Source: a virus (lineage: Duplodnaviria > Heunggongvirae > Uroviricota > Caudoviricetes). Taken from it: 12,106 nucleotides of DNA. The stretch lies in the IMG/VR virus record IMGVR_UViG_2744054964_000001, one strand, 5' to 3'. Below are positions 3,476 through 9,973 of this stretch, piece after piece. The notes below the pieces were generated by a model. It was not told the origin of the DNA and did not search any database. It saw only the letters and a program-made list of their open reading frames with translations. The position numbers and the translations under genes were made by a program. Position 1 is the stretch's first letter, and each line of letters begins with the position of its first letter.

Positions 3476-3679
3476 ATGGCTAATTACAATTCATTAATTC
3501 GTCTCTCTGAAGTTCAAAGGCGAACTGGTTATAGCAAAGCATGGATTTATCGTCTTATTAGTCAGGGGAGGTTCCCTAAACAGGTAAAAATTGGAAGTCG
3601 GGCAATTGCTTTTGTTGAGTCTGAAATAGATGAATGGATTGAGAAGTGTATATTAGAATCTAGAGACGAGGTGGCCTGA
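3476..3679 (+). CDS. alpA: AlpA-family (Vis-like) DNA-binding regulator / excisionase
   Basis: 67-aa ORF with the typical AlpA pattern LIRLSEVQRRTGYSKAWIYRLISQGRFPKQVKIGSRAIAFVESEIDEWI. It is the first gene of the island operon, and its stop overlaps the next start by 1 nt. Confidence 0.9.
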   Translation: MANYNSLIRLSEVQRRTGYSKAWIYRLISQGRFPKQVKIGSRAIAFVESEIDEWIEKCILESRDEVA

Positions 3680-4110
3680 TGGAAAAGAAAAACCGCCCAT
3701 TACAGGCGGCTAACTCAGATATTCGCACGTCTGATATTACGCCGACCACCAGCCCGGTACAAGTACCTAGGCGTACCCCAAAGAAACACCGCGCCCGCGT
3801 CTATATGCTGCGTACTGGTATAGAGGGATGGACAGAAAACGACATTCTTCGCTACTGCCGTCTGTCTTCTGGTCGTAACTATGCAACAGAGTTAGAACGC
3901 CAGCTTGGAATCACTCTGGAGCGTATCGACGAAAAGAATCCTGATGGTATCGGAACACACCTTCGCTACCGTTTCTCCTGCCGTGGTGATGTTCTGAAAG
4001 TGATCACTCATGTTAACCATCTTGCGAACATAAATGATCACAACGGACTTTCTCAGCAGGAAATTGCCGACATTCTGAAACTCTACCCGGACGCGTTTAA
4101 CGCCGCCTAA
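3679..4110 (+). CDS. hypothetical protein (basic, probably disordered N-terminus)
   Basis: 143-aa ORF translationally coupled to alpA (TGATG overlap). I recognise no domain. Confidence 0.7.
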   Translation: MEKKNRPLQAANSDIRTSDITPTTSPVQVPRRTPKKHRARVYMLRTGIEGWTENDILRYCRLSSGRNYATELERQLGITLERIDEKNPDGIGTHLRYRFSCRGDVLKVITHVNHLANINDHNGLSQQEIADILKLYPDAFNAA

Positions 4111-4122
4111 CGGAGACTGAAA

Positions 4123-4956
4123 ATGAACATCGAAAAAAGCAGATTAATTTCTGAGGCCGCCCCTCATCTGAACGCCTATCAGGGAACAATTAACGGTAAT
4201 GAATTTGCCGCAATTGTCCCGGTTATTCCTGGTCATATCGGTGGGCGTGAAACCAATATTGTTAGCGCAAAAGCGTTACACAAAGCGTTGGGCGTGGGAA
4301 AAGACTTCTCTACATGGATCGCTGATCGCATCTCTGAATATGACTTCACCATTGGGCACGATTACTCAGTCCATAAAACAATTTCCCCAAATCTGGGGAA
4401 AAGCCCGAATGGCGCGGCTTACAGCAAGATTAAACAGTCTGGCAGACCCGGCAAAGACTATCTGTTAAGTGTCGGAATGGCGAAAGAACTGGCAATGATC
4501 GAACGCAATGATCAGGGGCGTGCTATCCGTCGTTATTTCATCCAGTGCGAGGAAGAATTACAGCGTAGCGTGCCTGAAATCGCCGCCCGCTATCGTCGCC
4601 AGCTAAAAGCCCGTATCAGTGCCGCAAACAACTTTAAGCCAATGTGCGATGCGCTGAATATGGCCCGTGCCGAGATGGGTAAAGCGACGCAGCAGCGCCA
4701 CTACAGCAACGAGAGCAACATGATCGCCCGTATCGTGCTGGGTGGCATGACGGCGAAGCAGTGGGCGCAGGCAAATGGCATTACTGGCGAACCACGGGAC
4801 AGCATGAACGCAGCACAGCTTGAACACCTCGCCTATCTCGAAAGCACCAATATCACGTTAATTGATATGGGCATGGAATATGAGCAGCGCAAAGGAGAAC
4901 TCACCCGCCTGTCGCAACGCTGGCTCGCTAAACGTCTGGAGGTAAACCATGCGTAA
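4123..4956 (+). CDS. phage antirepressor-like protein (AntA/AntB N-terminal domain + KilAC-type C-terminal region)
   Basis: 277-aa ORF with a GGAG SD. The AntA-like segment is SAKALHKALGVGKDFSTWIADRISEYDFTIGHDY. The KilAC/ANT-like segment is DYLLSVGMAKELAMIERNDQGRAIRRYFIQCEEEL. Confidence 0.8.
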   Translation: MNIEKSRLISEAAPHLNAYQGTINGNEFAAIVPVIPGHIGGRETNIVSAKALHKALGVGKDFSTWIADRISEYDFTIGHDYSVHKTISPNLGKSPNGAAYSKIKQSGRPGKDYLLSVGMAKELAMIERNDQGRAIRRYFIQCEEELQRSVPEIAARYRRQLKARISAANNFKPMCDALNMARAEMGKATQQRHYSNESNMIARIVLGGMTAKQWAQANGITGEPRDSMNAAQLEHLAYLESTNITLIDMGMEYEQRKGELTRLSQRWLAKRLEVNHA

Positions 4957-5131
4957 CCATAATCCGATGCCGGGAAGCCGTTACAAGGATTCGCACGGGG
5001 CTGTAGTGACCGTTGAGCGCGTCGAGCATAACCGAGTGACCTTTTACCGCGAGGGCTATCAGTCGCCATGTGTTCAGCCTTTGGAGAGATTCGTTAATGA
5101 GTTCGTGGAGGTGCGCCGTGATACTGAATGA
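4949..5131 (+). CDS. small DUF4222-like protein
   Basis: 60-aa ORF with a GGAGG SD and an ATGCGTAA start/stop overlap with the upstream gene. The pattern YKDSHGAVVTVERVEHNRVTFYREGY resembles DUF4222 family members as I remember them. Confidence 0.65.
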   Translation: MRNHNPMPGSRYKDSHGAVVTVERVEHNRVTFYREGYQSPCVQPLERFVNEFVEVRRDTE

Positions 5132-5171
5132 ACCTGCCGCCCAGAAAGAAGCCTTTAATCTGGCTGGCATG

Positions 5172-5187
5172 TTGTCAAAAGTTGACA
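5172..5187. promoter_or_regulatory. 16-bp palindromic motif TTGTCAAAAGTTGACA (copy 1 of 2)
   Basis: The structure is TGTCAA-N3-TTGACA. It matches 10615-10630 (TTGTCAAAACTTGACA) at 15/16. It contains the TTGACA -35 consensus but I found no good -10 partner. Confidence 0.45.
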
Positions 5188-5419
5188 TCTGCAACCTTAC
5201 AAAACCTGATATTGATACCGCAGCGCCTGGAGTTCCGTTACCAGTACGCGAGGCGCTTACCCTCAACAAAAAGATGGTGAGCCGTGCACAGGGAAAACTC
5301 TTAAAGGGTTACGGTTTTATCTGGTATGACCACCTAGCAGAGAAAAGCTGTTATAGTCCAAGCGTTGCTGCAAAATCAGCAACCGGGCGTGAGAACCCGA
5401 ACACACTCAGGGCGACACA

Positions 5420-5441
5420 GACGCCGAAAGCGTCTTTTTTT
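5420..5441 (+). terminator. candidate intrinsic terminator inside the leader of the icd-like gene
   Basis: GACGC-CGAAA-GCGTC followed by seven T residues (5435-5441). The stem is short (5-6 bp), so confidence is moderate. Confidence 0.5.
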
Positions 5442-5466
5442 GTGTCCATTCACTACGCACATCAAA

Positions 5467-5603
5467 TCAGCGGACTTACCCGTACTGTATCAATGGTGGC
5501 GTTAGTGGGGCTACGTTCGCGTAGGCCGGTTTCCTTTGTGTCCGGTATTCTCACCCCCGCTGACGTCACCGCCAATTCAGAGCGTGAGAACTCAGGCGGT
5601 GAC
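5467..5603 (+). ncRNA. structured RNA region resembling the P4 CI / P1 C4 immunity-RNA locus ('ash' region); ends not determined
   Basis: A closing stem TCAGCGG (5467-5473) / CCGCTGA (5557-5563) encloses two hairpins: a UUCG-tetraloop hairpin CTACG-TTCG-CGTAG (5511-5524) and CCGG-loop-CCGG (5526-5545). A 9-bp stem follows, GTCACCGCC (5565-5573) / GGCGGTGAC (5595-5603). The conceptual translation (MVALVGLRSRRPVSFVSGILTP) resembles 'Ash family protein' annotations, which overlie the P4 cI RNA gene. Confidence 0.45.
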
Positions 5604-5630
5604 TCCTTAAACACAAAGGAGGCTGCCATA

Positions 5631-5822
5631 ATGGCTACTACCCCTACCCAAAAACCGCAATTTATCTGGATTATCGCAGCAGTTCGCCGCGATATGCCGA
5701 CAATTACCGCCAAAATTCACCATATCGCCGCAGAGACTGAGCAGGAAGCCCGCCGCATTCTGGCGCGGGATCACGTTTGCTTTTTTGCCGGACGTATTCG
5801 CACAGGGGGCGCACATGCTTAA
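5631..5822 (+). CDS. icd: host cell division inhibitor Icd-like protein
   Basis: 63 aa starting at the ATG 7 nt after AAGGAGG (5617-5623). The pattern KPQFIWIIAAVRR...TEQEARRIL...HVCFFAGRI resembles Icd-like proteins of P4-like elements. The frame is open upstream to 5070, but that extension is judged non-coding. Confidence 0.75.
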   Translation: MATTPTQKPQFIWIIAAVRRDMPTITAKIHHIAAETEQEARRILARDHVCFFAGRIRTGGAHA

Positions 5823-5994
5823 TTACTTCCGTGTTGCAGGATGCGCCACCGCCAGGAGCGGCGAATTAGTCGAGTTCGTTTATATCGTTGACGCCCGCAG
5901 CGCGATCAGCGCCAAAGCTGAGGCGCTAAATCAGGCCAGAAATGAACGCCTTTCCCACATCCAGATTACCCGCGTTCGTGAGGTGGCGGCATGA
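5815..5994 (+). CDS. hypothetical protein
   Basis: 59 aa starting at an ATG that overlaps the icd-like stop (ATGCTTAA), with an AGGGGG SD. The ORF-track start at 5785 lies inside icd and lacks an SD. Confidence 0.6.
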   Translation: MLNYFRVAGCATARSGELVEFVYIVDARSAISAKAEALNQARNERLSHIQITRVREVAA

Positions 5995-7197: not shown

Positions 7198-7539
7198 ATG
7201 ATTACTAAAAATTTCCGACTTAATGCGCTGGCGAATAAGTATGCGTCGGCACTGTATAACCACATTACGGCTATCAATGGTGGCAATTACTTCATGGTTG
7301 ACGCGGCAGGCCAGCAAATCCGTGTGGAGATCGTCAATGGAGTAAAAGGCGTTCGCAGCCTGATCGATAGCTACACACTGGCAGCCATGAAAGTGTCCTA
7401 CCCGCAGTGGGAAACCGTGGGGGTCGAGCTTCTTGAGCGTTGCGTCACTAAGGACGGATTGACTGACGTCGGGCGCGAGATATGGCAAAGCATGGTTAAA
7501 GACATGGGCGCGACAGTGGCAGGAGGCAATCATGCGTAA
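7198..7539 (+). CDS. hypothetical protein
   Basis: 113-aa ORF with a GAGGGGG SD. Its stop overlaps the primase start (ATGCGTAA). Confidence 0.75.
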   Translation: MITKNFRLNALANKYASALYNHITAINGGNYFMVDAAGQQIRVEIVNGVKGVRSLIDSYTLAAMKVSYPQWETVGVELLERCVTKDGLTDVGREIWQSMVKDMGATVAGGNHA

Positions 7540-9973
7540 TATCGACCTTATCCGCGAAGTGACCAGTGCCGCCGCCGGGCGCTGGCCTTATGTGCTGGCT
7601 GGATTGTCTATCGACGTGCCTGATTCATCGCGCCGCCATTCTCCATGCCCTGCATGTGGTGGAAAAGACCGTTTCAGATTCGACGACAACGGGCGCGGTA
7701 GCTTTATCTGCAACCAGTGTGGCGCTGGTGACGGGCTGGATTTAATCAAGCGGGTTAACAACTGCGACACTACGGAGGCGGCACAGCTTGCCGCTGACGT
7801 GCTGGGTATTGATTACCGGGCAGCGCAAACCGACCCGGTGGCAGCGAGCCATAGAAGAGAGCAACTGGAAGCTGACCGCCAGCAGCGTGAGCAGGAGCGC
7901 CAGAAACAGGCAGCAGAGGATGCAGAGCAGCGAAGGGCTACGTTTGCCCGTCTGTATGCCGGAATGCGCCAGAGTGCCACACAGGGCGAATCTGATTACC
8001 TGCAATCAAAAGGGCTGACCGGGTTTAAATATCCGGTAATGCCGGATGGTTCGTTATTGCTGGAGCTGGTGGACGAATCCGGCGCAGTGGCAGCAGCGCA
8101 AACCATTACACCGCAGGGAGAGAAGCGACTCCTGACAGGTTCAGCAAAGCGCGGGGCATATCACGCCGTAAACGCGCCAGAATCGCCGCAGAGCGTTTTA
8201 ATTGCCGAGGGGCTGGCGACGGCCCTTTCAGTTCACCTGATGCGCCCGGACGCGCTGGCAGTGGCAGCAATTGACGCGGGCAACCTGCTACCCGTTGCCG
8301 AAGTGATGCGCCGGAAACACCCGCAGTCGCAAATTATCATTGCCGCAGATAACGACCACCAGCAGGACGAACAGGCGAACACGGGCAAAGATGCCGCAGA
8401 GAAAGCCGCCTTATCCGTGGCTGGCTGGGTGGCGCTGCCGCCGACAGACTATAAAGCCGACTGGGACGACTACCGCCAGCAAAACGGGCTGGAAGTCGCT
8501 ACGGCTGCGTTTAACGATTCGATGTACCAGATTCAGGGGGAAGCCGTGAAACCACAACTACAGGCCATTGCGGGCGGTAAATCCCGCCGTAAAGCCGAAG
8601 TCGGAGATATTGCACAAATGGCAGCCAGCCAGAAAGCGCGGTTGCTTTCATCTCGATGGGATATGTTGGCGGTTAACCCTGATAGTGGCACTGTTTACTG
8701 TTACGAATCTGGCGTATGGGAGAAGCTACCAGACAGTGAATTAGAAAGGGTTATGGTGGCAATTTTCGACGAGCACGAAGCCCACTACACCGAAAAGGGG
8801 ATTAAATCGGTTGTCGCAACCATGAAGCTGCAAATACCGGTAATTGGTGAGCGGAGCGGGGATCTGATTGGTTTTGATAACGGCGTTTATGACCTCGCCA
8901 CGCAGACGTTTTCCGCCCATTCGCCGGGTAACTGGCTGATGAACCACAATGGGATCACCTACACCCCGCCAGCGCCGGGGGAAAATATTACCACCAGCGC
9001 CCCCAATTTTACCCGTTGGCTGAATCATGCAACGGCTGGCGACCATCATAAGGCCGAGCGTATCAAAGCAGCCTTGTTTATGGTGCTGGCGAAGCGTCAC
9101 GACTGGCAGCTATTCATTGAGATAACTGGCGAGGGCGGCAGTGGGAAATCCGTATTCAGCAGCATAGCAACCACGCTGGCAGGTGAACACAACACCGCCA
9201 GCGGTAGCATGATGACGCTGGACACCGCACGGGGACGAGCGCAGTTCGTAGGAAAAAGCCTGATTATTATGCCTGACCAGACCCGCTATGTTGGAGAGGG
9301 TGCGGGGATTAAGGCCATTACGGGCGGCGATCCGGTAGAGATTGATGGGAAATATGAAAAGCAGTTCACAACCGTGCTAAATGCCGTTGTTATGGCAACC
9401 AATAACGAGCCGATGACATTCACGGAGCGAAACGGGGGCATTGCCCGCCGCCGCGTGATATTCCCGTTTAATAACCCGGTATCAGACGCAGACAAAGACC
9501 CGGATTTAACCGCAAAAATCAGGCGAGAAATCCCGGTGATTATCCGCCACCTGCTAACCACCTTTGCCGACCAGAACAAAGCAAAGGCACTATTACTAGA
9601 GCAGCGCGATTCGCAGGAGGCGCTAGAGGTTAAACGCGGCACAGATCCGGTTGTCGATATGTGTGCGGCGCTTTTTTTCATGAACGAACCCAAAGGCATG
9701 ATGATGGGCGGAGGTACATGGGCAGGCCAGCCAGAGCCGAGGACATATCTTTATCATCTTTATCTGGCGTTTATGGAGTATCACGGCCTGGGTAAACCGC
9801 TTTCCGTCAATAAGTTTTCACGCGCCATAAAATCAGCAGCAAAAGAGTACCGAGCCAGCTACCTGACGAGAAGCATTAACGGCAGAGCGCAAACCAACGT
9901 TGGCTATAACGAGAAGGCTGAGGAGTTCATGCCACGCGCTTACGGCGTGGAGAGCGGGCAGAGTGATGATTGA
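7532..9973 (+). CDS. P4 alpha-type bifunctional DNA primase / SF3 helicase
   Basis: 813-aa ORF. It has an N-terminal Cys4 zinc ribbon CPACGGKDRFRF...CNQCG starting at codon 39 (nt 7646). Toprim-like motifs are LIAEGLATA and IIIAADND. The Walker A motif is GEGGSGKS (nt 9128-9151) and LIIMPD is Walker-B-like. Overall architecture matches P4 gp-alpha. Confidence 0.95.
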   Translation: MRNIDLIREVTSAAAGRWPYVLAGLSIDVPDSSRRHSPCPACGGKDRFRFDDNGRGSFICNQCGAGDGLDLIKRVNNCDTTEAAQLAADVLGIDYRAAQTDPVAASHRREQLEADRQQREQERQKQAAEDAEQRRATFARLYAGMRQSATQGESDYLQSKGLTGFKYPVMPDGSLLLELVDESGAVAAAQTITPQGEKRLLTGSAKRGAYHAVNAPESPQSVLIAEGLATALSVHLMRPDALAVAAIDAGNLLPVAEVMRRKHPQSQIIIAADNDHQQDEQANTGKDAAEKAALSVAGWVALPPTDYKADWDDYRQQNGLEVATAAFNDSMYQIQGEAVKPQLQAIAGGKSRRKAEVGDIAQMAASQKARLLSSRWDMLAVNPDSGTVYCYESGVWEKLPDSELERVMVAIFDEHEAHYTEKGIKSVVATMKLQIPVIGERSGDLIGFDNGVYDLATQTFSAHSPGNWLMNHNGITYTPPAPGENITTSAPNFTRWLNHATAGDHHKAERIKAALFMVLAKRHDWQLFIEITGEGGSGKSVFSSIATTLAGEHNTASGSMMTLDTARGRAQFVGKSLIIMPDQTRYVGEGAGIKAITGGDPVEIDGKYEKQFTTVLNAVVMATNNEPMTFTERNGGIARRRVIFPFNNPVSDADKDPDLTAKIRREIPVIIRHLLTTFADQNKAKALLLEQRDSQEALEVKRGTDPVVDMCAALFFMNEPKGMMMGGGTWAGQPEPRTYLYHLYLAFMEYHGLGKPLSVNKFSRAIKSAAKEYRASYLTRSINGRAQTNVGYNEKAEEFMPRAYGVESGQSDD

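Follow-up and report, generated by a model that had tools for sequence, protein, structure and literature searches.

The DNA analysed here, 12,106 nucleotides (nt) filed as IMG/VR virus record IMGVR_UViG_2744054964_000001 (Caudoviricetes) and called the window below, carries an RNA module just upstream of a small icd-like gene. A scan with Rfam at its curated thresholds gave three adjacent plus-strand matches above their gathering scores: c4-a1b1 (RF03163, 5351-5403; 54.3 bits, gathering score 46.7), isrK (RF01394, 5364-5440; 68.7 bits, gathering score 50) and the C4 antisense RNA (RF01695, 5489-5576; 76.9 bits, gathering score 45, E = 5.3e-14), the last over model positions 1-87 of 87. The original prediction, made from the sequence letters, had claimed a C4- or P4 CI-like RNA at this place and had proposed a check against the Rfam C4 and IsrK models, which proved positive for both families and for c4-a1b1 as well. 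Since the immunity region of phage P4 gives the same isrK and C4 matches, we assign the module to the P4 arrangement of seqA, CI RNA and seqC, which is also the a1b1-c4-a2b2-icd arrangement of P1/P7. P4 and the window share 76% DNA identity over the module. The equivalence of IsrK with seqA and of C4 with CI RNA in P4-like prophages has been published (PMC3632133; PMC10111431), and satellite relatives of both CI and seqA can be recognized with the two Rfam profiles (PMC10111431). The element is of an already known kind, a textbook RNA immunity switch that curated models can detect.

Leader, C4 RNA and target sites

All features described here lie on the plus strand. A putative constitutive promoter resembling P4 PLE (5349-5357) has a TGn extended -10 element, TGTTATAGT, recognized by homology. 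Its -10 hexamer, TATAGT (5352-5357, with transcription predicted to start at ~5364), aligns column for column with the annotated -10 of P4 record X02534 (L003 587-592, equivalent to L002 1487-1492), and it is from this alignment that we infer the promoter. The T, A and final T of the element are invariant in eight homologues.

The RNA expected from this promoter is an IsrK/P4 seqA-like leader (5364-5441), delimited by RF01394, RF03163 and a terminator scan. Its isrK score above the gathering threshold, its two 5′ hairpins (5364-5383 and 5384-5399), the Rho-independent terminator behind them (stem 5419/5420-5435, then U7 at 5435-5441) and the predicted promoter in front mark it as a member of the IsrK/seqA family. 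Hairpin 2 holds in its loop the target site a1, GUGAGAA (5389-5395), and an imperfect site, b1, follows at 5401-5412. The terminator-like hairpin with its run of seven T residues had been noticed earlier; both a base-by-base reading and the terminator scan recovered it. The earlier account is to be refined in one respect: the hairpin is part of the separate upstream IsrK/seqA-like RNA that carries the a1 and b1 sites. The spacer from the terminator to C4 is variable in length and sequence and measures 47 nt in the window versus ~107 nt in P4.

Two observations concern the flanks of the terminator. The sequence TTTGTGTCC (5439-5447), once taken for a copy related to the C4 hairpin loop, is present, but it consists of the T-run and a TGTGTC flank that is kept in 13 of 17 homologues despite 14 different loops; its likeness to the loop in the window is coincidental. 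Separately, GACACA (5414-5419), just before the terminator stem, is complementary to UGUGUC (5441-5446), just after the U-run, and both flanks, GGCGACACAGACGC ... GCGTCTTTTTTTGTGTC, are kept in most homologues. In transcripts that read through, the two segments could pair into a helix around the terminator.

We compared the module with P4 and 18 further loci, comprising Escherichia coli islands, P1-like plasmids, phage D6, mEp460, a Punavirus and a Klebsiella phage. Covariation was scored on a 17-sequence alignment, and complements were counted over 21 C4 copies. C4 was present in 18/18 of the further loci, and isrK scored above its gathering threshold in all but two (L017 and L021).

The C4/P4 CI-type RNA (5489-5576) is defined by its Rfam match, its minimum-free-energy fold and covariation. 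A long closing stem (5494-5510 with 5555-5571) encloses two hairpins, namely a UUCG hairpin, CUACG-UUCG-CGUAG (5511-5524), and a GCCGG/CCGGU hairpin (5525-5546) with a 12-nt loop, b′ (UUUCCUUUGUGU, 5530-5541). The heptamer a′, UUCUCAC (5548-5554), lies unpaired in the junction, and a 3′ tail contains CCA (5572-5574). Folded in isolation, 5489-5576 adopted the family structure at -41.9 kcal/mol (z = -4.75), and none of 200 shuffled sequences folded as well. Across the homologues, 99.1% of the cells in the C4 fold were paired and 15 of the 27 pairs had changed on both sides; for the closing stem the values were 99% and compensatory changes at 9 of 17 pairs. The closing stem is followed by a conserved C-x-CC(A) (5570-5574), a combination that would resemble a processing substrate.

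Both hairpins had been seen before, the second as a CCGG hairpin at 5526-5545, and our base-by-base reading agreed. Matters were different for the closing stem, which had been put at 5467-5473/5557-5563: those 7 base pairs (bp) are present, but they lie in variable spacer and are peculiar to the window, as homologues have 3-6 nt of complementarity at this place and L004, 88% identical to the window, has 3. The real closing stem is the one given above. At its 5′ foot an AUG (5493-5495) is conserved and stands in the icd frame in 15 of 17 copies; no obvious Shine-Dalgarno (SD) sequence precedes it here. By analogy, orf45 of the Salmonella prophage Gifsy-1 may use the equivalent AUG.

Downstream of C4, a 9-bp stem (GTCACCGCC, 5565-5573, with GGCGGTGAC, 5595-5603) forms the a2 hairpin (5565-5603), whose loop carries the second GUGAGAA site, a2 (5584-5590), a 7-bp complement of a′. 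The stem had been described earlier; it was present on base-by-base reading and co-varied in the homologues, with 94.9% of cells paired and 7 of 12 pairs changed on both sides. The 5′ arm of this hairpin (5565-5572) doubles as the 3′ arm of the C4 closing stem. Therefore the closing stem and the a2 hairpin are mutually exclusive, and each of them is backed by covariation. Next comes the translation-initiation target (5604-5622), comprising a local anti-SD hairpin, the site b2 (ACACAAAGGAGG, 5611-5622) and the SD sequence AAGGAGG (5616-5622). In the minimum-free-energy structure, CUCCU (5604-5608) pairs with AGGAG (5616-5620), and the specificity bases ACACA occupy the loop of this hairpin.

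The start codon of the icd-like gene, ATG (5631-5633), follows 8 nt after the SD. This icd/P4 kil-like gene (5631-5822, 63 amino acids) is the first gene downstream of the RNA module. NCBIfam NF033153 (phage_ICD_like) matched at 68.8 bits against a cut-off of 25, over residues 198-245 of the open reading frame (ORF) 5070-5822, all of them within the 63-residue ORF. The P4 homologue stands at the same position with 65 codons. The score and the location of a small ORF directly after the C4 target sites point to a member of the Icd-like/Kil proteins.

Pairing determinants and their covariation

The b′ loop contains TCCTTTGTGT (5532-5541), which is the exact reverse complement of ACACAAAGGA (5611-5620). 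The perfect complementarity between this loop and the SD region of the icd-like gene was the core of the original prediction, and it is exact; with two G-U pairs it extends to a 12-bp duplex (5530-5541 with 5611-5622) that covers the whole SD. The duplex, with 10 Watson-Crick and two G-U pairs, has an energy of -19.5 kcal/mol (pairing energies here are duplex energies of isolated segments). A complement to the loop of at least 10 nt within 90 nt downstream is expected by shuffling with P ~7e-4, and within the whole window the 10-mer occurs at 5532-5541 and 5611-5620 only. A second determinant had escaped the earlier reading: a′ (5548-5554) matches GUGAGAA at both a1 (5389-5395) and a2 (5584-5590). 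The longer word CGTGAGAAC occurs in the window only at 5388-5396 and 5583-5591, and two copies arose in 0 of 200 shuffles. On the downstream side, then, a′ pairs with a2 over 7 bp and b′ pairs with b2, where the first gene has its ribosome-binding site; on the upstream side, where c4-a1b1 scored above its cut-off, a1 is an exact 7-bp match and b1 an imperfect one. The b1 match comprises 5+4 bp or, in another register, 4+4 bp. The b′ loop also matches a conserved sequence at the foot of the terminator, GACACAGA (5414-5421), at -10.1 kcal/mol.

The homologues bear out this pairing scheme. An exact complement of the a′ heptamer was found at a1 in 21/21 C4 copies and at a2 in 20/21, with at least seven different heptamers represented. 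The b′ loop had 14 variants, and a complement of at least 7 nt was found at b2 in 18/21 copies and at b1 in 14/21. The single a2 outlier was L021, a P1-like phage; read by eye, it gave G-U wobbles, which suggests that its apparent a2/b2 mismatch is no real exception. Taken together, the a′/a2 and b′/b2 pairs were 86% paired, and 14 of 19 pairs had changed on both sides. The observed covariation was reached in 0 of 500 column shuffles for each of the C4 fold, the a2 hairpin and the a′/a2 plus b′/b2 pairs. When the partner was slid by 1-3 columns, pairing dropped to 30-54%. A natural exchange of one determinant is seen in L004, which has the same b′ as the window and an a′ switched to a UGCAAA-type heptamer, with a1 and a2 both co-changed. 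The anatomy of the module, its complementarities and their covariation are matters of direct observation.

Could the same sequences work purely in cis, as a leader in which the C4 loop or the CUCCU segment hides the SD within one transcript, with no processed trans-acting RNA and no immunity? The minimum-free-energy structure does place the SD in the local CUCCU/AGGAG hairpin, and on that transcript only ~80 nt separate the b′ loop from b2 downstream of it. Such a leader, however, would have no need of two determinants that are each matched at two separate sites and co-vary with them, nor of a tRNA-like closing stem with a conserved CCA tail. Moreover, it is established that P4 CI and P1 C4 confer immunity in trans (PMC3632133, PMC10111431). 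We therefore consider a cis-only leader very improbable. The broader proposal of an immunity or antisense control element, also made in the original prediction, is supported by the Icd-like match downstream, the co-varying pairing of the loop with the SD region and the Rfam matches shared with P4.

An eta-like frame and related immunity systems

The icd frame contains a long ORF that spans the entire RNA module (5169-5822; the frame is open from 5040), and its start at 5169 is the counterpart of the start that RefSeq uses in a relative. Between 5352 and 5630 the icd frame has 0 stop codons versus 2 and 6 in the other frames (shuffle P ~0.02). In 11 homologues, P4-like and lambdoid, this frame likewise stayed open beyond the isrK start; in P1-like plasmids stop codons closed it. 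Open over 5040-5822 and beginning upstream of the internal promoter, it corresponds to the P4 eta frame. In P4, kil is nested within eta, which is translated only from an upstream late promoter, and this translation prevents the immunity-dependent termination (PMC10111431).

Protein annotation has treated this frame differently. In the closest RefSeq relative the RNA gene is not annotated and a 217-residue 'Icd-like' coding sequence (CDS) runs across the module, whereas other relatives in RefSeq have an 'ash family protein' there. Pfam Phage_ASH (PF10554) matched residues 95-195 of ORF 5070-5822 with E = 5e-21, that is, nt 5352-5654. This family also matches the obsolete P4 'cI gene product'/ash ORF over the C4 region (L002 1607-2023). 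The open frame, the Phage_ASH match and the 217-residue CDS might be taken to mean that the locus merely encodes a protein, with the RNA structure incidental. We give that explanation almost no credence. Substitutions among the homologues preserve base pairs rather than codons, with double changes at 15 of 27 C4 pairs and 7 of 12 hairpin pairs; P1-like copies carry stop codons in the icd frame; and the Phage_ASH match runs exactly from the promoter to the icd start, so that the family coincides with a translation of the RNA module. P4 eta, a gene whose translation belongs to the RNA switch, accounts for the open frame, so that the locus has a coding and an RNA function side by side.

Among known systems, P4 has the same order of parts, with its kil/icd-like gene directly after b2/seqC and the primase downstream. 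The a′ heptamer and the a1 and a2 sites (GUGAGAA) are identical, the -10 TATAGT stands at the aligned position, and the RNA is likewise traversed by a long open eta-like frame. By contrast, the P4 b′ loop is UAUCCUGUGAAG, compared with UUUCCUUUGUGU in the window, and b2 differs to match. Because b′ and b2 differ in this way, partial heteroimmunity with P4 is expected. The window further departs from P4 in its degenerate b1, its shorter spacer between terminator and C4, and the extra genes between alpA and the module.

The immI region of P1/P7 (a1 b1 - c4 - a2 b2 - icd - ant1/2) resembles the window in its C4 fold, with a′ in the junction and b′ in the loop, in the duplication of target sites upstream and downstream, and in a b2 site that overlies the ribosome-binding site of icd. 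Over the whole module, the window aligns with P1-like plasmids and with phage D6. In P1, however, an antirepressor (KilAC/Ant) follows icd, whereas in the window, as in P4, small ORFs and a replication primase follow. P1-like copies also differ in that their eta-like frame is not open and their specificity sequences are different.

A third relative is the IsrK - orf45 (STnc1160) - anrP region of Gifsy-1, whose leader has the same two hairpins and terminator and whose layout also includes a processed ~80-nt species downstream with complementarity in common with IsrK (PMC4825925). Lambdoid copies such as mEp460 have the same pair of isrK and C4 as the window. In contrast to the repression described for P4 and P1, the short IsrK RNA of Gifsy-1 has been published as a trans-acting activator, and translation of the C4-like stretch there yields orf45, which is coupled to an antirepressor, whereas the window has an Icd-like gene with its own SD after C4.

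The Gifsy-1 precedent raises the question of whether activation of that type is the main mode here. The 5364-5441 RNA would pair in trans through a1/b1 with a′/b′ of the read-through RNA, or would titrate C4, opening an inactive structure and turning on downstream translation. In Gifsy-1, IsrK supplied in trans raised downstream translation >100-fold, and the ~80-nt processed species (STnc1160) lies over the C4-like stretch (PMC4825925). The isrK match in the window is strong at 68.7 bits, and in the minimum-free-energy structure of the precursor (5345-5640) a1 pairs with a′ at 7/7 positions and b1 pairs with b′ in cis, which corresponds to the inactive 'structure A' of Gifsy-1 (PMC4825925). 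Against this, the downstream frame of Gifsy-1 starts inside the C4-like sequence and is antirepressor-coupled, whereas here an Icd-like frame has its own SD beyond C4; b1 is weakened in the window copy; and such activation can coexist with C4 repression instead of replacing it. On balance we regard it as unlikely to be the main mode. Co-folding of mature C4 with the leader or with the target by RNAcofold gave small gains only (-4 to -5 kcal/mol), as loop-loop contacts are beyond what nested folding can represent.

Our preferred reading, to which we assign a probability of about 0.88, is that a P4-like satellite prophage has its immunity region here, each part of which is homologous to its counterpart in the PLE-seqA-cI-seqC-kil/eta region of P4 and in the P1/P7 region. 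If the module operates as those systems do, the constitutive promoter at ~5349-5357 would transcribe the leader, and most transcripts would end at the terminator (5419-5441). Read-through RNA would be processed to a stable C4/CI RNA of ~80 nt, with RNase P cutting the 5′ side of the closing stem at ~5493/5494 and the 3′ end forming near the CCA (5572-5574). This RNA would act in trans, and also in cis on its own precursor: pairing of a′/b′ with a2/b2 would block ribosome entry at the icd/kil start, and the untranslated transcript would terminate prematurely in a Rho-dependent manner, leaving the replication (primase) genes off. Superinfecting elements of the same a/b specificity would thereby be excluded. 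Pairing with a1/b1 in the leader would add to the control, and the short leader RNA may in addition compete or activate, a role that has been reported for IsrK. Once an upstream late promoter is on, ribosomes on the eta-like ORF would disrupt the RNA structures and let transcription pass.

Several points weigh against this reading. Anything past the anatomy draws on homology to P4 and P1. RNase P cleavage and the Rho-dependent site belong to the background of the P4 and P1 systems and come partly from secondary summaries. A scan of 4900-5900 for consensus sigma-70 promoters found none, and the proposed promoter is without a recognizable -35, the lack of a good -35 being the reason why the consensus scan missed it. 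Finally, b1 (ACACTCAGGG, 5403-5412) has two central mismatches relative to ACACAAAGG in relatives with the same b′, whose b1 is intact over 8-9 nt, and its duplex amounts to -8.4 kcal/mol compared with -19.5 for b2.

Island setting and possible reassortment of specificities

The module sits in an island with tRNA-Thr at 1369-1444 and, next to it, a tyrosine integrase ORF (1610-2824). An AlpA/Vis-type regulator ORF (3476-3679) follows, and the operon headed by the icd/kil-like gene ends, after small ORFs, in a P4 alpha-type primase-helicase (7532-9973, 813 amino acids) with Zn-ribbon, Toprim, D5_N and DUF5906 domains. An integrase at a tRNA gene, AlpA and an alpha-type primase, all on one strand, mark the surroundings of the module as a P4-like satellite island located at tRNA-Thr next to proA. 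The genes for capsid size and Psu fall outside the window. Several complete E. coli genomes have, at this site, islands that are 97-98% identical to the window. Between alpA and the immunity module (3679-5131) the window has three genes, all in the same orientation, that are additional to those of P4 and most related islands: a 143-residue ORF without a family match, an AntA/AntB-domain protein (4123-4956) and, at 4949-5131, a DUF4222 protein. Here the antirepressor-like gene lies upstream of C4; in P1 such a gene lies downstream.

P4-like islands at tRNA genes are often defective, and the two central mismatches in b1 relative to same-b′ relatives would fit an inert relic in a decaying cryptic island. 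The rest of the module does not look decayed: the -10, the leader hairpins, the terminator, the C4 helices, a′, a1, a2, b′, b2, the SD and the icd-like ORF are all intact, and the integrase, AlpA and 813-residue primase are full-length ORFs. A relic is accordingly improbable.

Searching with the exact b′ hairpin retrieved nine more loci, in three Halomonas/Vreelandella genomes, a Pseudomonadota metagenome-assembled genome, a Chryseobacterium-labelled contig and four IMG/VR contigs. They combine the identical b′ with five a′ heptamers found neither in the window nor in L004, and their a1 and a2 sites match exactly, one a1 site excepted. The same C4 allele was not found on plasmids or phages at ≥90% identity; the best matches were 72-88% for plasmids and 71-78% for phages. 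The Chryseobacterium-labelled contig (L022, CACSKA010000004.1, Chryseobacterium sp., Bacteroidota) has an enterobacterial-looking C4 module with the same b′ hairpin and may reflect assembly contamination or mislabelling.

Other loci bear on specificity in different ways. An island, L005, and a P1-like element, L010, have the b′ loop TTCCCTTTGACG in common and differ in a′, and the b′ loop of L006 is one base away from those of L018, L011 and L014. Such identical or near-identical b′ sequences hint at partial cross-reactivity between chromosomal P4-like islands and P1-like phage-plasmids. E. coli OkiPb01678 (L017, NZ_AP042495) contains two C4 copies, at 499-586 and 979-1067, ~480 nt apart and with different a′ and b′ alleles. 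The first copy, covered in RefSeq by one 1653-nt 'Icd-like' CDS, is followed by a 62-codon Icd-like ORF; the ORF found after the second has only 11 codons, and RefSeq marks the Icd-like CDS there as frameshifted. The pair may be a tandem or stacked set of immunity modules.

The exact b′ hairpin occurs with at least seven different a′ heptamers, in hosts from Escherichia to Halomonas. A speculative extension, which we consider unlikely, is that a and b are freely reassorting modules of a combinatorial RNA immunity code common to P4-like satellites, P1-like phage-plasmids and lambdoid prophages, and that, with b1 decayed in this lineage, C4 might act on the leader terminator through GACACAGA. 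If true, a reassorting a/b code would permit cross-talk between satellites and helpers.

For annotation, the 'Ash family' and long 'Icd-like' labels overlie an un-annotated RNA immunity switch and call for correction. Reading the a′ and b′ alleles would allow mutually immune P4-like islands, P1-like plasmids and prophages in a strain to be predicted.

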